64,000 bases of DNA, taken from Terriglobia bacterium (lineage in GTDB: Bacteria; Acidobacteriota; Terriglobia; 20CM-2-55-15). The position numbers were made by a program, and so were the translations under genes. The DNA is taken from positions 1 to 64,000 of the forward strand of contig CAXWPJ010000009.1 in NCBI GenBank assembly GCA_963664115.2, written 5' to 3'. The notes under the pieces were generated by a model. That model saw nothing but the letters and a program-made list of their open reading frames with translations. It searched no databases and was not told the origin of the DNA. Below are positions 25,517 to 33,156 of the stretch, piece by piece. Each line of letters begins with the position of its first letter. Within the stretch, counting starts at the first letter, position 1.

Positions 25517-25657
25517 TCGGGTCGTAGCGTACGACTGAAGCGCCGCCTATGATTCTTCGATGTCCAGCACCTCTTCGGGGCATTATCACCCCTTTCTCAG
25601 GTGTCCGCTATATCGGGTGAATTCCATGCCTAGAAAAAAGCCAAAAGGGAGGACTTG

Positions 25658-26410
25658 ATGCGAATCGAAATTCTGATGGTGTCGGTAGTCGTGGTGTTGG
25701 GCTTCGGCCTCAATGTTTTTGCGCAGGAACAGGAACCGGACCTGAGGCCCGGGAAGGCCTATAGCGGGACTTCACTGCTCTTCCGTGAAGACTTTCCGTC
25801 GGAGGGATTCAGGCATGCGGCGTTGACTCAAGAACGCATCGAGAACCCGGACCTTGAGCTCAAAATGTACGGACCCGGTGGCGAGTCCGGTGACGGCGAA
25901 ACGTTCGGGATCCGGCTGAGCTATGAAGAGGACCATATCTATCCCGGTGAGATGGCGAGCATGGTCTACAGCGGAGTAGCACAAGGAAGCTGGGCCGTCA
26001 TGCTGAAGGACAGGAACAACTACTTCGACCTTCGGGACACGGCCCGGATCCGCTGGCGCGTCCGGGGACGAGGACTGCACCTGCTCCGGCCTGTGGTCAA
26101 GCTGGCGGACGGAAGCATGTGGGTCTCGGACTATGTCGAGCAGTTTTCAACGTACTTCCACGAAAACGAGATCTTTCTTGTCGATATCTTTCGCTGGCGG
26201 GAGGTGGACCCCACGACCATGGCCGAAGCCCGCGCCAGAGGCGGCGAGCCGCTCTGGAGGACAGACCTCGACCTCAGTATGGTCGACGAAATCGGCTTTA
26301 CCGATCTCAGGACGGGCGCGGGCGATGGAACCCAGGGAAACACCGCCGTCGATTGGATCGCAGTGTACGGGAACCCGGTAAGTCGGACTGCCCAGCAACG
26401 CCAGCGCTAG
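25658..26410 (+). CDS. Exported hypothetical protein
   Basis: GGAGG RBS, signal peptide, long open frame. Confidence 0.7.
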   Translation: MRIEILMVSVVVVLGFGLNVFAQEQEPDLRPGKAYSGTSLLFREDFPSEGFRHAALTQERIENPDLELKMYGPGGESGDGETFGIRLSYEEDHIYPGEMASMVYSGVAQGSWAVMLKDRNNYFDLRDTARIRWRVRGRGLHLLRPVVKLADGSMWVSDYVEQFSTYFHENEIFLVDIFRWREVDPTTMAEARARGGEPLWRTDLDLSMVDEIGFTDLRTGAGDGTQGNTAVDWIAVYGNPVSRTAQQRQR

Positions 26411-26825
26411 TCGGCACACGAGTTGCATCTGTTTTCAACTTGCGGCATGTTTGGCAGGGGCGGCGGCGACTGATTTTTCGGTGCCCCTTGTCCCTGCTTC
26501 GGTGCTGAAACCAAAGAGGTTCGTTGGATCGAACGTGGAGATTTACTGCGACCGCTCTCCTCCTGTCACAAGCATTTCGTCGCCCTGGGGACGCCAACAA
26601 CAGACAAGCGCAATCAGACCCTAAACTCCGCGGACACGTTTAAACCTGCTTGATGTGGTGGGTCAGCGGACGAAGCAGTTGACGATCTCGGCAAGCGGAT
26701 GTTGCTTTTGCTTGAATCGCGATCGACTTACGGAGTGGATGGATTTGATGAGCTTGTGTCGGAAATATTCGATCAATACACCGATTTTGCAGTCAGATAT
26801 ATGTAGCGGGGATCGTAACTCGTTA

Positions 26826-26878
26826 TGCCGAAAAGAAGATTCGAACTTCCACGGGGTTGCCCCCACTAGATTCTGAGA
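26826..26878 (-). other. 3' fragment of tRNA-Leu(CAG), candidate att site
   Basis: Minus strand CTCAGAATCTAGTGGGGGCAACCCCGTGGAAGTTCGAATCTTCTTTTCGGCA: anticodon loop, long variable arm, T-arm GTTCGAATC and acceptor 3' strand; no D-arm or 5' half upstream. Confidence 0.8.
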
Positions 26879-27255
26879 CCACCCAGCGGAATGGGTGATT
26901 TCTTGATAAACCCTTAGTTTTTCAATTCATTACACGGATTCTTCGCCAACAGAAAACGTGAAAGATTGAGTCAGTTTGAGTCGCTGGGCGGGCGAGAAAC
27001 GGGAGGCGAAGTTTCAAGCGAGAGACTGGAGCAATCGAATCCGCGACGTCCAGTTTGGAAAATAAACCCTCATTCGTAAACCGATTATTTAGCGTCGATG
27101 GCTTCTGTTTTTGGCACCGGGATCGATGTCTTTCCGGACTTCTTCCTCCTAATTATGGAGCACGAACGGCGCACAGTACGAAATGCCAAACATATGTTCG
27201 GCTAATTAACTTGCCAAGCCCCCCTCATCGTCGTCTAGAATTCAAAGAGGTATTA

Positions 27256-28065
27256 ATGGCCAGCACATCAAAGATCGAATGGACCGATGCAACTTGGAAC
27301 CCCGTTCGTGGATGCATCAAGATCAGTCCTGGATGCAAGCACTGTTATGCAGAGACGTTCGCAGAACGCTTCCGGGGCGTCCCCGGACACGCGTATGAAC
27401 AGGGGTTCGATCTCAGGTTCGTTCCCGAGAAACTATTGGAGCCCCTGAGATGGACTTCTTCGAAGACAGTGTTCGTGAACTCGATGAGTGATTTATTTCA
27501 GGACGGCGTACCAGACGACTACATCGAATCTGTAATTGAGGTAATGAAACTCGCCAATTGGCACACCTACCAGGTGCTGACAAAACGATCAGGTCGAATG
27601 CGAGATTTCCTGAACAGCGATCGTTTCGATTCAAGAGGGTCCGATCACATCTGGTGGGGCGTAAGCGTGGAAGACAGAGAATTCGGATTGCCCCGCATAG
27701 ACGAACTCCGAGAGCTGAGCGTGGGCATCCGATTTTTGTCGATCGAACCGCTTCTTGCAGATCTTGGATCAATCGATCTAAGCAAGATCGATTGGGTGAT
27801 AGTGGGCGGTGAGAGTGGTGCCGGTGCACGTACGATGAAAAGGGATTGGGTAGAATCGATTCGGAAGCAGTGCGAGCGGGACGGTGTCCCGTTTTTTTTC
27901 AAGCAATGGGGCGGTTTCCAGAAAGCCAAAAACGGCCGTGAATTGAATGGACGGACGGACGACGAACTCCCTGAGCGACGACTTAGTCCGTTTCCAGATG
28001 CAGCCTCGAGACGACGATTGATCAACGACTTTGCGCAGGTCGCGTCAAACGTCGTTGGATTATGA
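27256..28065 (+). CDS. DUF5131 (phage Gp37/Gp68) radical-SAM-like protein
   Basis: SKIEWTDATWNPVRGCIKISPGCKHCYA, FVNSMSDLF, LTKR, WVIVGGESG, FFFKQWG. Confidence 0.92.
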   Translation: MASTSKIEWTDATWNPVRGCIKISPGCKHCYAETFAERFRGVPGHAYEQGFDLRFVPEKLLEPLRWTSSKTVFVNSMSDLFQDGVPDDYIESVIEVMKLANWHTYQVLTKRSGRMRDFLNSDRFDSRGSDHIWWGVSVEDREFGLPRIDELRELSVGIRFLSIEPLLADLGSIDLSKIDWVIVGGESGAGARTMKRDWVESIRKQCERDGVPFFFKQWGGFQKAKNGRELNGRTDDELPERRLSPFPDAASRRRLINDFAQVASNVVGL

Positions 28066-28142
28066 GAACGGCAGAGTTGTGGTGAGTTCACGGTCGTCTA
28101 TGGCTAGCCCATCAGGGGTTTCAGTTTTCTGGAAAGTCACAA

Positions 28143-29144
28143 ATGACCGAATACGGCACTCATCCTGACGAGATCCAGCCTTTTTTTCAAGCGAAGCGGC
28201 GCTGGTCAAAAGTCAAAGACAAGATCATTGGTGACTACGTCACCTCTTACCTAAAGATCATCACGCGTCGAGGGCGTCCAATCATCATCGTCGACGCGTT
28301 CGCCGGCCCTGGACGATTCGGCGACGGATCTGCTGGATCACCTCTCATTATTTGCAAGGCAATCAGAGAGGCAACAACCCGAGCCGACGTTGGGATCGGC
28401 TGTCTCTTTGCGGATGTCCATCCGGCTCACCGACGAGCGTTGCGCGAAAACTTGTCCGAGTACATCCGGGACGGCATCGCGGAGAACCCACTCTCAACTT
28501 TTTCTGAAGTTCTCACGCGTGCACTACAGATAGGCTCAGGATCCACGCTGTTTTTTTACCTAGACCCCTTCGGAATTAAGGACCTTGGCTTCAATACTGT
28601 CCGGCAGATCTACGAGAGAAACAAGCAGCAAAGCACGGAACTTCTGATCAATTTCAGTTTCCGAACATTCATGCGAATGAGCGGAAATTGGGGCTATAAC
28701 GACACGGCATCGGAAGTTACCGAAAAGGTTCGCAGCGGAAAGATCGAAACCGTGAACAGTGTGATGGGTGGTGACTACTGGCGCGACATCGTTACTGATC
28801 CAAATCTTGATAAGACTCAACGGGAAGACGCGGTGGTCGACGAGTACCTAAATCAGCTTCGCACTTCTTTCAATTATACGTGTTCCATTCCCGTCGATGA
28901 TGTAGATGACAAAGATTCTATCGCGCTTCCTGGGAACGAATTGGCCAAATATCACCTGGTGTTTGGCACACGAAATCCCAAAGCGGTCGTATTGATGAAT
29001 GACATCGCTCTGAACGCACTAGGACCGTATTTCGACCAGTTCAAGTCAGGCTTGCTCTTCGACGTAACGCCAGTGCGCTATGAAAGGAATCCTGAGGCTG
29101 AGATCAAGAACGCTATCGTCCAGGCAGTCATGAAAAACCCATGA
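28143..29144 (+). CDS. tcmP: Three-Cys-motif partner protein TcmP (methyltransferase-like fold)
   Basis: WSKVK, VDAFAGPG, GSPL, FYLDPFG, ELLINF, YHLVFGT; adjacent to DUF5131. Confidence 0.82.
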   Translation: MTEYGTHPDEIQPFFQAKRRWSKVKDKIIGDYVTSYLKIITRRGRPIIIVDAFAGPGRFGDGSAGSPLIICKAIREATTRADVGIGCLFADVHPAHRRALRENLSEYIRDGIAENPLSTFSEVLTRALQIGSGSTLFFYLDPFGIKDLGFNTVRQIYERNKQQSTELLINFSFRTFMRMSGNWGYNDTASEVTEKVRSGKIETVNSVMGGDYWRDIVTDPNLDKTQREDAVVDEYLNQLRTSFNYTCSIPVDDVDDKDSIALPGNELAKYHLVFGTRNPKAVVLMNDIALNALGPYFDQFKSGLLFDVTPVRYERNPEAEIKNAIVQAVMKNP

Positions 29145-29326
29145 CACGTCAAGAGATTTATGAGGAGGTGATTCCCCTCTATTTCCTGCAACGGAAGAAG
29201 AAGGAGTATAGGGTAATGATCGAGTCGCTAGTTTTCGCTGAAAGCAGGCTTTTTCCAGATCGCAACATCACCGGATCCAAGAAGAAGCTCAACGACAAAG
29301 TTGTTCTGTCAATTGCCCCCAGCTAG
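29141..29326 (+). CDS. Small ORF, probably the wHTH C-terminus of TcmP (split or frameshifted)
   Basis: ATGA overlap after AAAAACCC; KKKEYRVMIESL resembles a TcmP tail. Confidence 0.45.
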   Translation: MTRQEIYEEVIPLYFLQRKKKEYRVMIESLVFAESRLFPDRNITGSKKKLNDKVVLSIAPS

Positions 29327-29567
29327 GACCTTCCTGATCGTCACTGAGCGCTTCGATACTAAATCATAGTTCCCTGCGTCAGGTTCCTGTTTCTTCGTTC
29401 ACGATAGGAACTGAACGAATGCAAATTCCCTCGAAGAAACTATATGACAAGAACTGAAACACAGTCATCGAACTCATGAAATCGGACCTGGCATTCGTAG
29501 TTGATCGATTTCTACTGCGCCGGCACCAAAACGCTCAGTTACCACATCCTTTCGATATAATGGAGCC

Positions 29568-30257
29568 ATGTCCCCATACACGCTTCAGCTCGTGTGCCTT
29601 GCAAATTCCTATAGGGAAGGTGGTCGATGTGTTGCGGGGAAAATCATTGGTGAGGCCGGCTATAGTGAGTGGGTTCGACCAGTTAGGCCTGATCAGGACC
29701 GATTAAACCTTCAAGACGTAATGATTGAAGGAACAAGGATTGCGGGTCTGTTAGACATCCTCCAGGTAGATTTTGTTGAACCGAAGCCTGTCGAATTTCA
29801 GACTGAGAATCATGTTATAGACACAGAGCGGCCATGGCGGCAATCGGGAACCGTCGACACCGACACTGTCGTGGATGCCATTGACGATCTCGACAAATTA
29901 TGGATAAACGGACATAGCACTGGCAACGGGATAAACGATCGCGTTCCTGCAGAAGAGGCTGCTCAGTTTAGCCATTCCCTGATGCTCATTCGGCCCGAAC
30001 AATTTGAGATCCGCGTGCAGACTGAGGGAGGAGGTATGTACCCAAGGAAGAAAAAGGTTCGGGCGGCATTCAACTTCAAAGGCGCTTCTTACATCCTCGC
30101 GATTACAGATCCATTGATTCATTCGGAATATAAACCGCGCAAGGAAGGGCGATACCCGCTTGACGGCTCGCATCATCTCGTTTGCGTAAGTCTGTCTATG
30201 CCGTTCAAAGGCGACAATTCATGTTACAAATTAGTCGCCGGTGTAATCGCGATCTGA
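29568..30257 (+). CDS. Dual OB-fold domain protein
   Basis: LVCLANS..GGRCVAG, WVRPV, QTENH, ITDP, VSLS..CYKLVAGVI. Confidence 0.7.
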   Translation: MSPYTLQLVCLANSYREGGRCVAGKIIGEAGYSEWVRPVRPDQDRLNLQDVMIEGTRIAGLLDILQVDFVEPKPVEFQTENHVIDTERPWRQSGTVDTDTVVDAIDDLDKLWINGHSTGNGINDRVPAEEAAQFSHSLMLIRPEQFEIRVQTEGGGMYPRKKKVRAAFNFKGASYILAITDPLIHSEYKPRKEGRYPLDGSHHLVCVSLSMPFKGDNSCYKLVAGVIAI

Positions 30258-30261
30258 TCCT

Positions 30262-30876
30262 ATGCAACTATTCACGATTGGCCATTCCACGCACGAAACT
30301 GAACATCTCTTAAAGCAGCTCACGAAGCATCACGTGACTGCGGTAGGGGACGTTCGGTCTTATCCTTATAGTCGAAGAGTGTCGCAGTTCAACCGCGAGA
30401 ATCTTGCCGAAGCGTTAGACCGGGACGGAATTGAGTATGTATTTCTTGGAGAAGAGCTCGGGGGGCGGAGCGCCGACTCAGAGTGCTACGTCGACGACCA
30501 AGTGTCGTATGGGCGAGTGGCGAAAAACGCACGTTTCCTTGACGGCATCCAGCGTGTATTAAAAGGCCTTCAACAGTATTCGATCGCATTGCTCTGCGCC
30601 GAAAAGGATCCGCTTTTTTGTCATAGAGCGATTCTCGTGTGTCGCCAACTTGCAAACCACGACGTCCCAATAGCGCACATCCTGGGGAACGGTTCGATTG
30701 AGACACAGAAAGAGTTAGAGCGACGCTTGCTGAGGATCTGTCACCTTGAGAAGCCGTCCATGTTTTCCACACATGAGGAGCTGCTAGAACGTGCATACGA
30801 CGTACAGGGAAAACGCATTGCCTACAGTCGCCGACCCGATGTTGGAAGTAACCCAAACGCTCAGGAACAGATCTAA
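30262..30876 (+). CDS. DUF488 family protein 1
   Basis: LFTIGHS, DVRSYPYSR, ELGG, LLCAEKDPLFCHR. Confidence 0.88.
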   Translation: MQLFTIGHSTHETEHLLKQLTKHHVTAVGDVRSYPYSRRVSQFNRENLAEALDRDGIEYVFLGEELGGRSADSECYVDDQVSYGRVAKNARFLDGIQRVLKGLQQYSIALLCAEKDPLFCHRAILVCRQLANHDVPIAHILGNGSIETQKELERRLLRICHLEKPSMFSTHEELLERAYDVQGKRIAYSRRPDVGSNPNAQEQI

Positions 30877-31313
30877 TGCAGCTTTATACAATTGGTTTCA
30901 CAAAGAAGAGTGCCGAAGTTTTTTTCACTAAGATGATCGAGGCGGGGGTGAAACGCGTTGTGGACGTGCGTCTGAATAACGTGTCTCAGTTAGCAGGGTT
31001 CGCTAAAAGAAACGATTTGCAGTATTTCTTGAAGAAAATCGCCTCTATCGACTATGTGCACCTAACGGACCTAGCGCCGACCAAGAAGCTGCTCGACGAA
31101 TACAAGAAACACGGTGGTGACTGGTCTGTGTACGAAGACGGTTTCATGGACTTAATGCGAAAGCGTTCAGTTGCGGACAGGTTCAGGGACTTCTTGCTCA
31201 ACGGAGACTGCCTATTATGCAGCGAAGAACTACCGGAACATTGTCACCGTCGTTTGGTTGTCGAATATCTGATGAGTAAACAGATAGAGTTGCGGGTCAG
31301 ACATATCGTTTGA
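30876..31313 (+). CDS. DUF488 family protein 2
   Basis: LYTIGFT, DVRLNN.SQL.GFAK, LAPT, LLCSEELPEHCHR. Confidence 0.88.
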   Translation: MQLYTIGFTKKSAEVFFTKMIEAGVKRVVDVRLNNVSQLAGFAKRNDLQYFLKKIASIDYVHLTDLAPTKKLLDEYKKHGGDWSVYEDGFMDLMRKRSVADRFRDFLLNGDCLLCSEELPEHCHRRLVVEYLMSKQIELRVRHIV

Positions 31314-31771
31314 ACCAGTGGCGTGTTTTCGGCGTGATCAACGAAACAAAGCTCCGTCCAGCACCCCCTCCTATTTCACTTGGTCTTATAGAAACAAGTG
31401 TCGGCGGCAATGAACTGAACGAGTTGAAACGCTCGATATTCCGAGAGATGCACGCGGGGCAGTATGCGGAGCGAGATCGGATCGTGGCTCATTTCGGGTA
31501 GACGATGTCCGGCTAACTCGCTTGAAGTGAGTTAGCCAACTCGCCTCAGTCACGGACATAGGCCCAGAATCCCTCAGCTTCGCACCTGAACGGCCATCAT
31601 GGACTCAGCTGATGAGAGACCCATCTGATGTCTAGAAACGACTCACAGCCAATTCGGATTTTCGAACGTACGTATGTTTGTTCGAGTACAATTCTGTGTA
31701 TGCCTCGAAAGTCGTTTGCAGATCGTGTCCACGACTACTGCAAACGGCGGAGTCTCCGTTGGGAGTTCATT

Positions 31772-33156
31772 GAGTTATTGTCAAAAGTGGTGTTTAGGAG
31801 ATTGATTCAAGCGGCGGCCTGATCGACTTGTGTCGCTTCGACACCATCGTTGAATTTCACTCCGATGATTACCTTGCTCAGATCATCGAATCCTCGTAAT
31901 CGTCGCCAATTGTTCTCAGCGCACTGGCCCAGTTTGAACATCATGTGCAGCATGCCATCCCGTGTCAGGCAACCTCTGGATCGCTTCGTTCGGTGTCGAA
32001 TGGTGGCAAAGGTCGACTCAATGGGATTCGTCGTTCTGATGCTCTGCCAGTGCTTGGCCGGAAAGTCGTAAAAGGCCAGCAGTTCCTCTCTGTCTTTCTG
32101 CAGGCAGAGTGTGGCTTTCGGATACTTCGGTTCATAGGTTTCAATGAACAAGTCGAATGCCTTCTCGGCGTCTGCCTTCGTCTCGGCCTGCCAGATCGAG
32201 TGCAGGGCCTGTTTCGCCTTCGCCTGGACCGACTTGGGCAGGCAGTTGAGGACGTTCATGACTTTGTGCATCCAGCAACGTTGTTGACGTGTCTCGGGAT
32301 AGATTTCCTCCAGTGCGGCCCAGAACCCCATCGCACCGTCACCGATGGCCAACTTCGGAACATTCATCCCACGGGACTTCAGCTTCAACAAGACCTCGCG
32401 CCAACTCTGTGTCGATTCCCGTACACCGTCTTCGATCGCCAGGAAACGCTTCTCTCCGCGTTCATTCACGCCGATCACGACCAATGCACACAACTTGGTT
32501 TGTTCCGCCCGAAGTCCGCTGTAGATGCCGTCGGCCCAGACATAGACCCAGCGATCTGCATCCAAACGCTCCTCGCATCCGAGGCGGTACTGTTCGCCCC
32601 AAACCTGTTTCAACCGCGATACCGTGCTCGCCGACAGACCCTGCGCCTGGGGACCGACAAGAACTTTTAGGGCCTCACCCATCTCGCCGCTGGAAACGCC
32701 TTTCAAATACAACCACGGCACCGCTGCTTCCAGCGACTTCGTCTTCCGAATGTACGGTGGTACCAGGGCCGATCGGAACGTCACAGCTTCGCCCGTCTTG
32801 GCACGGACCTTCGGGATTTGGACTGTTACCGGACCCAATCCCGTCTGCAGTTCGCGTTCCGGCAGATAACCGTTGCGTACCACCCCGGCGTTTCCTGTCT
32901 CAGTTCGCCGGCCACCGTGCTGGGATAGCAGCTCTGCCAATTCGGCTTCCACTGCGCGTTGGATCAGTTGCTGTGCCCCAACTCGTAGTAGTTCTGTTAC
33001 TGGATCCTCAATCGTTTCTCGACCTTCCGGTCCATTCACGTTACTCTTGCTCACAGTGGCGTATCTCCTATGGTTGCTTTGAAGTTTTGTCACAACAAAT
33101 CAACCAGATACGCCGCTCTTATTCAATCCCTCAAACACCAGATTCGGTTATAACTC
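31772..33156 (-). mobile_element. IS256 family insertion sequence
   Basis: Imperfect IRs GAGTTAT..TGGTGTTT..GATTGA at both ends; flanks do not match, so no target duplication. Confidence 0.85.
31807..33054 (-). CDS. IS256 family transposase
   Basis: RNGYLPER, YLKGVS, WADG, IGDGAMG, QRCWMHK, TTNPIES. Confidence 0.93.
   Translation of the reverse strand: MSKSNVNGPEGRETIEDPVTELLRVGAQQLIQRAVEAELAELLSQHGGRRTETGNAGVVRNGYLPERELQTGLGPVTVQIPKVRAKTGEAVTFRSALVPPYIRKTKSLEAAVPWLYLKGVSSGEMGEALKVLVGPQAQGLSASTVSRLKQVWGEQYRLGCEERLDADRWVYVWADGIYSGLRAEQTKLCALVVIGVNERGEKRFLAIEDGVRESTQSWREVLLKLKSRGMNVPKLAIGDGAMGFWAALEEIYPETRQQRCWMHKVMNVLNCLPKSVQAKAKQALHSIWQAETKADAEKAFDLFIETYEPKYPKATLCLQKDREELLAFYDFPAKHWQSIRTTNPIESTFATIRHRTKRSRGCLTRDGMLHMMFKLGQCAENNWRRLRGFDDLSKVIIGVKFNDGVEATQVDQAAA

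Follow-up and report, generated by a model that had tools for sequence, protein, structure and literature searches.

The 64,000-nt stretch of DNA analysed here (the window) carries, on its + strand, a run of five genes that a sequence-only reading had taken for one candidate DNA modification, repair or anti-phage module, and the question raised by this locus is whether the five genes indeed act together. We favour, with a probability of about 0.6, the explanation that they constitute two independent cassettes carried side by side as cargo of a split tRNA-Leu integrative element, the first likely DNA-modifying and damaged in this copy and the second likely phosphate-removing. The two-cassette architecture is the firmest part of this account, and the mechanism proposed for each cassette is tentative, its chances falling a little short of even.

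Gene content and composition of the locus

Profile bit scores against Pfam and TIGRFAM families bear out the five co-oriented open reading frames and the assignments given to them (DUF5131, TcmP, a dual-OB protein and two DUF488 proteins), and the motifs singled out by the sequence-only reading are all present (C20-x6-C-x2-C, DAFAGPG, CAEKDPLFCHR and CSEELPEHCHR). The features of the locus are as follows.

26815-26877, - strand: att scar at the distal element end, consisting of the 3' part of tRNA-Leu(CAG) plus 11 nt
27017-27105, - strand: another scar, degenerate and similar to the 3' end of tRNA-Gly(CCC) plus island-end sequence (71-81% matches)
27256-28065, + strand: DUF5131 (PF07505, 319 bits; 269 aa), radical-SAM-like, with C20-x6-C-x2-C; PDC-M30B/M41B
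28143-29144, + strand: N-terminal part of TcmP (TIGR04474, 124 bits, cut-off 53; 333 aa)
29141-29326, + strand: detached C-terminal piece of TcmP (61 aa) in the -1 frame, with an ATG that overlaps the stop of TcmP
29556-29561, + strand: TATAAT, 6 nt before the DuOB start, a possible leaderless -10 element without a -35
29568-30257, + strand: DuOB, the dual-OB protein (PF22557, 202 bits; 229 aa); PDC-M45A
30262-30876, + strand: DUF488 'a' (PF04343, 80 bits; 204 aa), with C112-x-E-x5-CHR; PDC-M45B
30876-31313, + strand: DUF488 'b' (PF04343, 84 bits; 145 aa), with C115-x-E-x5-CHR; PDC-M45C
31772-33156, - strand: IS256-family element, its flanking 9-mers pairing with those of the copy at C9:634459-635843

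The region is AT-richer than its flanks, as had been noticed (GC 50.0% versus 57.1% on the left and 53.7% on the right), each of the five genes being low (46-52%); the genome as a whole has a GC content of 56.7 +/- 1.8%, and among 2427 genome windows of the same size 0.12% reach so low a value. A '240-bp gap' with TATAAT had been read as the border between two transcription units. The gap exists (241 bp), counted from the detached TcmP fragment and not from the TcmP stop, and two units are supported; the TATAAT at 29556 is there but lacks a -35 partner, a scan of 26800-31800 found no + strand promoter, and a scan of the gap found no terminator. A leaderless promoter before DuOB was rejected as a general feature, since TANNNT stands 5-7 nt before the start in 1/58 loci and CATAAT in two more.

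A PADLOC check, suggested by the sequence-only reading, returned two candidate cassettes. The adjacent DUF5131 and TcmP genes correspond to the B and A genes of PDC-M30/M41, and the three downstream genes, separated by 4 and -1 nt (the 1-nt overlap of the DUF488 pair being thus real), match the M45A, M45B and M45C models of PDC-M45. All three are entries of PADLOC-DB 2.0 with defence as a prediction only (Payne et al., bioRxiv 10.1101/2024.01.29.577857). We found no experimental study of either cassette in the literature covered, most subscription papers and bioRxiv supplements lying outside its scope.

The split integrative element and the broken tcmP gene

Both cassettes lie at the distal end of a tRNA-Leu integrative element of ~10 kb, between two landmarks, a tRNA scar and an IS256 copy, that had been correctly recognized before. 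The scar is identical at 63/63 positions to C9:640969-641031, the 3' end of tRNA-Leu(CAG), and beyond the window are found the tRNA in intact form and the integrase (G000:C9:639861-641063). The element displays att direct repeats, a tyrosine integrase and an excisionase-like HTH protein, and the att site is empty in another genome of the same genus. Its integrase half is 600 kb away from the cargo half, the separation falling at IS256 copies whose target duplications are swapped: the 9-mers flanking the copy at 31772-33156 do not match each other and instead match the flanks of the C9:634459-635843 copy, at a place where short-read contigs end inside IS256 and a real rearrangement and a mis-join look alike. 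The second scar is probably what remains of an older element; its island-end sequence recurs on contigs C2 and C11. Both the remote integrase half and the break in tcmP had been overlooked by the sequence-only reading.

TcmP had been described as a single gene with a SAM-binding-like DAFAGPG, but it is broken by a frameshift and stops at 29144, leaving 333 aa and a separate 61-aa tail against a homologue median of 401 aa. The tail corresponds to the proteins' own C-terminus in 117 of the 120 homologues listed (median identity 48%); it has no match to Pfam GMT-wHTH. Sequencing error is ruled out as the origin of the break because contigs of four short-read runs, representing at most four samples of which one may be the source, read through it with no indel. 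The short TcmP homologues listed comprise only the variant from this genome itself and two proteins encoded on contigs of 1.0-1.3 kb. The structural model places the cut inside a predicted C-terminal winged helix, between its helices 1 and 2, and so away from any domain border; most of this winged helix would be lost, and the TcmP copy is therefore probably weakened or inactive.

The locus might accordingly be seen as a decaying relic, that is, an immobilized element whose copy of at least the DUF5131-TcmP half no longer works. This idea draws on the separation of cargo from integrase by IS256, on the position of the cut inside the winged helix and on the presence of ~50 near-identical full-length IS256 copies in the genome, but the other four reading frames are full length and retain all family-invariant motif residues, and both element arms occur in four samples with few differences (two of the three listed coding differences are silent, too few to gauge selection). 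We consider general decay unlikely, if worth bearing in mind.

Predicted function of the DUF5131-TcmP cassette

The N-terminal 333 residues of TcmP contain a complete class I methyltransferase domain, with a glycine-rich motif I (D52-x-F-x-GPG) that is invariant across the homologues and with D142-P-F-G after strand 4; D142, P143 and G145 are invariant in 74/74 homologues, position 144 being Y or F. Sequence searches found no solved relative of either TcmP or DUF5131, and the TcmP alignment had no match in viral contigs. The predicted structure of a full-length homologue (P0002; pLDDT 88) shows a seven-strand Rossmann-like fold, for which the best VIA matches are DUF519/RlmJ 2oo3 (Z 16.2, rmsd 3.4, 207 residues aligned) and 6qe5 (Z 14.6), the next scoring 13.3. 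RlmJ is an adenine-N6 methyltransferase that modifies 23S rRNA and does not act on single-stranded DNA (PMC3814359). The suggestion that TcmP works like RlmJ is drawn from this fold rank and from the position of the Asp-Pro pair; the RlmJ-like fold and the invariant Asp-Pro-aromatic motif together single out a residue for catalysis by TcmP and a class of substrate.

DUF5131 represents megacluster 5-2 of RadicalSAM.org, the spore photoproduct lyase group being the neighbouring 5-3 (PMC9477430), and matches TIGR04471 weakly (E 4.6e-20, below the cut-off). All eight TcmP matches outside this genome adjoin a DUF5131 match. TcmP may bind SAM in an RlmJ-like pocket, grip DNA with its winged helix and methylate an exocyclic amine (N6 of adenine or N4 of cytosine), and DUF5131 would convert the methylated base further via a [4Fe-4S]/SAM radical in the manner of spore photoproduct lyase. 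The present copy is a poor choice for testing this scheme, because its tcmP is broken.

Predicted function of the DuOB-DUF488-DUF488 cassette

The second cassette is a coherent unit: DUF488a is also found in 77 and DuOB in 53 of the 80 metagenome loci of DUF488b, despite short contigs. A scan of genome contigs with DuOB alone gave two loci. Among 36 viral loci, DUF488a occurs in 12 and mSLOG-DUF4326 in 22, never both, and mSLOG-DUF4326 occupies the DUF488a position in 22 of the 24 viral loci without the first DUF488. RapZ-C, DUF488 and DUF4326 were reportedly united by Burroughs and Aravind in 2023 as one clade within the rhodanese-phosphatase superfamily. DUF4326 has been described as a rhodanese-phosphatase clade, with a predicted activity on the ribose-linked phosphates of ADP-ribose (PMC9503650), and its presence in place of DUF488a in prophages hints at ribose-phosphate or ADP-ribose as substrates of PDC-M45. 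For the DUF488b model (pLDDT 89) most of the fold matches are to PTP/dual-specificity phosphatases and to N-domains of tetrapyrrole methylases (Z 5-8.7, rmsd ~3), none much above the background level of the tool, and a Foldseek search with it gave no match at E <= 0.001. The DUF488a family has a clamp-motif-like [EQ]xD[LM]F at 164-168 (F168 in 89%, D/S/E166 in 87%); the strict Q-form is present in 21/87 sequences and a QLSLF type (compare QL[SD]LF) in a few, the present copy having a degenerate KPSMF. We envisage a dual-OB protein bound to single-stranded nucleic acid and two DUF488 enzymes that, using a Cys/Arg site in a phosphatase-like fold, remove a ribose-linked phosphate from DNA ends or ADP-ribose-type nucleotides, possibly while docked on the sliding clamp through [EQ]xD[LM]F.

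The second cassette probably serves anti-phage defence, as its genomic company suggests. It lies between HmaB and HmaC in two loci (L048, L086), directly after a DUF1156 gene in L093, between PglX and PglZ in L118 and directly after PglX in L120, and other loci are near CBASS and CRISPR genes; many unrelated genes adjoin it as well. The mobile-island origin and the defence-like, DNA-acting flavour ascribed earlier to the locus agree with these Hma and BREX contexts and with the PADLOC matches. Residence of M45 relatives inside such operons is also what the method of defining PDCs demands.

Rather unlikely, in our opinion, is the view that both cassettes help the host or the element to repair or tolerate DNA damage, with an enzyme like spore photoproduct lyase and end-cleaning phosphatases at replication forks. 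Besides the grouping of DUF5131 and the clamp-like motif of DUF488a, one may invoke the Atlas look-alikes of DUF5131, all below 0.9, which include a 'putative DNA repair photolyase' cluster (0.85; a lead only), single SRAP and LigD neighbours of M45, and the IrrE-type peptidases adjoining it in five loci (L053, L073, L117, L124, L196), such peptidases being reported to respond to DNA damage in CapP+CapH systems. CapP+CapH itself controls immune operons, however, and the patchy distribution of DuOB (10/400 and 4/400 genomes in two counts), its embedding in Hma and BREX operons and its proximity to CBASS and CRISPR are typical of defence genes. The fully specified scheme, in which TcmP is an unrecognized RlmJ-like DNA amino-methyltransferase, DUF5131 turns its product into a base modification of a new type, and the trio of DuOB and DUF488 proteins, brought next to this pair several times independently, is a clamp-docked end-processing arm of one modification-based defence, is a speculative proposal with small odds of holding in every part.

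Association of the two cassettes

The co-occurrence of the two modules had been put forward as a check on their unity, and they rarely meet, the very outcome named as counting against it. Among 400 genomes of the phylum, DuOB is present in 10, DUF5131 in 78 and both in three, as expected by chance (Fisher p = 0.42), and they are never adjacent. DUF5131/TcmP is absent upstream of M45 in 54 independent clusters with at least 2.5 kb of upstream DNA and in 80 clusters with at least 1 kb, and the present gene order recurs in 0 other loci examined; on the Comamonas plasmid NZ_CP101744.1 the two families lie 80 kb apart. A plasmid count (19 DuOB and 36 TcmP records, none shared) was discarded, as its query missed a divergent TcmP beside M45 on NZ_CP032923.1, which the TcmP profile applied to the loci does detect; a DUF5131 match in L056 (20 bits over 66 nt) was dropped as noise.

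A single system, in which a base modification or strand lesion produced by the radical-SAM/methyltransferase pair is finished or repaired by the DUF488-DuOB trio, is improbable. Co-orientation and the uniformly low GC of the five genes would fit it, as would independent juxtapositions in three other loci (L037, L049 and the Agrobacterium plasmid L196), where DUF5131 is a close neighbour of M45 and not scattered over the flanks (three observed against ~0.05 expected from genome-wide density, ~60-fold); in L196 DUF5131 is only 33% identical and TcmP 28% over 163 columns. All three are convergent, however, with different partners, the L049 DUF5131 being part of a row of genes that includes an ATPase and gave no TcmP match. 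Other cargo adjoins M45 equally often (DUF1156 three times and IrrE-type peptidases five times among 127 neighbours), the 241-bp gap parts the units, and an intact M45 stands beside a broken tcmP. The closeness of DUF5131 to M45 fits shared defence-island real estate, and there may be a weak functional link between the cassettes. What had been presented as a five-gene system is not new, both halves being catalogued candidates already, and the neighbourhood here looks like island accretion; the earlier observations are partly confirmed and their interpretation partly supported.

Least credible is a functional split of tcmP, with the tail supplied by translational coupling or -1 frameshifting to re-form the whole enzyme: the tail ATG overlaps the TcmP stop, Met is natural there in 35/74 homologues, and a short A-run precedes the break common to four samples, but no comparable split exists among the 120 homologues listed (from a search spanning 183-583 aa), the heptamer falls short of a complete XXXYYYZ slippery site, the first hairpin predicted after it begins only well downstream, and the cut lies inside a domain.

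Comparison with known systems

The value of the locus lies in testable leads for two widespread uncharacterized gene sets. TcmP resembles RlmJ in its top structural match, the Asp-Pro after strand 4 and invariant Lys residues in the N-terminal helix, but shares only 10-13% identity with it, has DP(Y/F)G for DPP(Y/F) at motif IV and so departs from the (D/N/S)-P-P-(Y/F/W) of amino-methyltransferases such as RlmJ and Dam; unlike RlmJ, it has an extra predicted C-terminal winged helix, is mobile and is paired with a radical-SAM-like protein. That partner shares megacluster 5 and the weak TIGR04471 match with the spore photoproduct lyase group, yet has Cx6Cx2C in place of the canonical Cx3Cx2C. 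As for PDC-M30/M41, DUF5131 matches M30B/M41B at 334/332 bits and TcmP passes the TIGR04474 cut-off, but the matches of TcmP to M30A/M41A are weak and partial (best 58 bits); it belongs to a distinct ~400-aa subfamily, has no match to Pfam GMT-wHTH and is split in the present copy.

The second cassette may be likened to the rhodanese-phosphatase superfamily in the fold neighbours of DUF488b, which are cysteine phosphatases and tetrapyrrole/diphthine-type methylase domains, and in the replacement of DUF488a by DUF4326 in prophage variants, but both DUF488 proteins have C-x-E-x5-C-H-R and not the C-x5-R phosphate-binding loop of PTPs. It corresponds to PDC-M45 in all its genes, DuOB, DUF488a and DUF488b matching M45A, B and C over their full length (E 1e-68, 1e-78 and 2e-66) in the same order; with gene content identical to that of PDC-M45, the present copy differs in standing alone at an island end and not inside another defence operon.

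Gene content of the locus

The five ORFs picked out by the sequence-only reading all occur on the + strand of the window, and profile matches bear out the families proposed for them, i.e. DUF5131 (PF07505), TcmP (TIGR04474), DuOB (PF22557) and two DUF488 proteins.

Features of the locus
27256-28065, +, DUF5131
28143-29144, +, TcmP
29141-29326, +, detached end of TcmP, 61-aa ORF in the -1 frame relative to tcmP
29568-30257, +, DuOB
30262-30876, +, DUF488a
30876-31313, +, DUF488b

The motifs recorded for these proteins, the 1-nt overlap of the DUF488 genes and the TATAAT at 29556 are likewise present in the sequence, and the region is indeed AT-rich (GC 50.0%, compared with 56.7 +/- 1.8% in the genome). 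TcmP had been taken for a whole gene, but its frame stops after 333 residues and the rest is a separate ORF. Overall, the locus is genuine and was acquired horizontally: two catalogued candidate cassettes, of which one is damaged, on a split integrative element.

Two cassettes rather than one module

PADLOC supports the suggestion of a candidate defence function, but the matches are split over two entries, PDC-M30/M41 (DUF5131-TcmP) and PDC-M45 (DuOB and both DUF488 genes). Such PDCs are predictions based on embedding within other defence systems (bioRxiv 10.1101/2024.01.29.577857). The proposal that all five genes form a single module is not supported by the co-occurrence check (400 genomes; 128 PDC-M45-type loci, forming 118 clusters at 90% nucleotide identity), which shows cassettes that are tight within and loosely linked to each other. 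TcmP lies beside a DUF5131 match in 8/8 cases from seven other genomes, and DUF488a is present at 77 of 80 metagenome DUF488b loci (the best 80 of 571). Within the phylum, in one set of 400 genomes, 10 carry DuOB and 78 carry DUF5131 (93 matches; the unpublished genome G053 is counted in), with both present in three, far apart in each (p = 0.42). DuOB was found in four of 400 genomes from a second phylum, one of which also carries DUF5131, on a different contig. DUF5131 or TcmP lies upstream of PDC-M45 in 0/54 clusters with at least 2.5 kb of upstream DNA and in 0/80 with at least 1 kb.

A functional link between the cassettes could be argued from three cases (loci L037 and L049 and the Agrobacterium plasmid NZ_CP032923.1, the last being one of three plasmid regions read) in which DUF5131 lies just downstream of PDC-M45 on the opposite strand, against ~0.05 expected from genome-wide density (~0.9 Mb of flank, genomes assumed to be 4-5 Mb). 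These juxtapositions are independent, as their DUF5131 proteins are 33% and 62% identical to the one studied here and the partners differ. However, genome-wide density sets the bar too low, given that both cassettes reside in islands, and other island cargo is equally frequent beside PDC-M45, with DUF1156 found three times and IrrE-type peptidases five times (127 of 157 immediate neighbours scanned). PDC-M45 is also found inside or abutting runs of Hma and BREX genes, and CBASS and CRISPR genes are among its neighbours. We therefore read the pairing of DUF5131-TcmP with PDC-M45 as a shared location and consider a functional link unlikely.

The plasmid region L196:444-10227 (NZ_CP032923.1) is one defence island, comprising CBASS with HORMA and AAA ATPase genes, an HTH and IrrE pair, the three PDC-M45 genes and, convergent to them, a DUF5131-TcmP pair. 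Peptidase genes of the IrrE/M78 type, in some cases accompanied by an HTH gene, directly adjoin PDC-M45 at loci L053, L073, L117, L124 and L196, and DNA-damage-inducible control of the cassette is possible. Large plasmids of Enterobacterales (200-400 kb) commonly carry a DUF488b-like gene (hits H74-H115); the plasmid records with such a gene number 115 in all, 74 of them conjugative.

The integrative element and its split

The 3' end of the genome's only tRNA-Leu(CAG), 614 kb off on the same contig, recurs without a mismatch as a 63-bp scar at 26815-26877. Beside that tRNA gene lie genes for a tyrosine integrase, an HTH_17 excisionase-like protein, a REP_ORF2-G2P-like protein (score slightly under the cut-off), DUF669 and a RovC-like DNA-binding protein, followed by an IS256 copy.

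Element core
G000:C9:635844-641063 (this genome; locus L001:7844-13064), RovC-like DNA-binding protein, Zn ribbon, DUF669, REP_ORF2-G2P-like HUH-type replication protein, two hypotheticals, HTH_17, tyrosine integrase

This core has the appearance of a rolling-circle element, or a satellite, that has integrated. The 9-bp target duplications are reciprocally swapped between the IS256 copies at 31772-33156 of the window and C9:634459-635843, and a wbsX gene (flagellar region) is divided between the same two sites. In the same-genus genome G002, the window's left-flank gene adjoins tRNA-Leu and the gene found after that tRNA in the present genome, RNase R-like by our reading. The scar identity, the swapped flanks and the arrangement in G002 together identify the five genes as cargo at the distal end of an integrative element about 10 kb long. 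Its halves are separated by a 600-kb segment, which contains dnaN and a dnaA-like gene and is therefore chromosome. The genome has ~50 full-length copies of this IS256, several others also with unmatched flanks, and the split may stem either from a rearrangement or from a mis-assembly. A second, decayed tRNA-Gly-type scar directly ahead of DUF5131 (27017-27105) points to an older element as the source from which the cargo accreted.

Decayed tRNA-Gly(CCC)-type att scars are dispersed in the genome (window 27017-27105; G000:C2:691825-692921; C11:130010-131970; C8:21550). A 251-aa protein at 25655-26410, which begins like a signal peptide and matches no Pfam family, is conserved beside tRNA-Leu in G002.

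The break in tcmP

The 333 residues of TcmP compare with a median of 401 in close homologues (57-67% identity), and the 61-aa ORF is matched by 117 of 120 proteins among the matches listed (257 found). Short-read contigs from four runs span the break with zero indels, so the population does carry it. Mapped onto the model of a full-length homologue, the break lies between helices 1 and 2 of the C-terminal domain, a putative winged helix judging by how its elements succeed one another; being cut inside a domain, tcmP probably suffered a lesion rather than a functional fission. In another assembly of the same locus (P0001), TcmP is frameshifted at residue 271, probably by a long-read error.

Possible functions of the cassettes

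Both DUF488 proteins keep D30-x-R32 and C-x-E-x5-C-H-R, and the model of DUF488b is similar, at modest Z, to cysteine phosphatases and to domains of tetrapyrrole methylases. At 36 viral loci, DUF488a (present in 12) and an mSLOG-DUF4326 gene are mutually exclusive, the latter replacing it in 22 of the 24 others; several of the 22 are near-duplicates, and the remaining two end at contig edges.

mSLOG-DUF4326 prophage variant of PDC-M45
L122, L125-L127, L130-L141, L143, L146-L150, viral contigs

DUF4326 belongs, according to PMC9503650, to a rhodanese-phosphatase clade likely removing terminal phosphates from ribose in ADP-ribose. The swap suggests that the position of DUF488a requires a ribose-phosphate-processing enzyme. 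Three mSLOG-DUF4326 proteins checked with PADLOC gave no match. The DUF488a family carries [EQ]xD[LM]F at 164-168, and some members QLSLF-type loops; the former resembles the sliding-clamp motif, and DUF488a is a putative clamp binder. Burroughs and Aravind reportedly predicted, in 2023, DNA-end processing for the RapZ-C/DUF488/DUF4326 clade.

As regards the other cassette, RadicalSAM.org places DUF5131 with spore photoproduct lyase in megacluster 5 (PMC9477430). Locus L049:1031-6309 has DUF5131 divergent from a row encoding an HTH-like protein, a DndH/HerA-like ATPase, a 538-aa protein and a methyltransferase-like ORF; this row contains no TcmP match. In the literature, a tcmP gene adjoining hna is listed with those up-regulated in a NolR+ strain of Sinorhizobium (PMC12445080), and listed prophage contents include TcmP ORFs (PMC12429752). 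Most likely, TcmP would methylate an exocyclic amine in DNA, DUF5131 would then convert the methylated base by radical chemistry, and the modified base would mark self or damage foreign DNA.

A class I methyltransferase fold is seen in the TcmP model (74 sequences, pLDDT 88). Of 48,161 chains, the two that match it best belong to the RlmJ family (Z 16.2 and 14.6; next 13.3). RlmJ is an adenine-N6 methyltransferase with a DPPY motif like that of DNA methyltransferases and with essential D164 and K18 (PMC3814359). In TcmP, D142-P143-(Y/F)-G145, located where strand 4 ends, is invariant, as are K19 and K26 near the N-terminal helix, and from their positions in the model we infer a putative correspondence with the RlmJ residues. 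The two differ in that RlmJ has DPPY whereas TcmP has D-P-(Y/F)-G, with one proline fewer.
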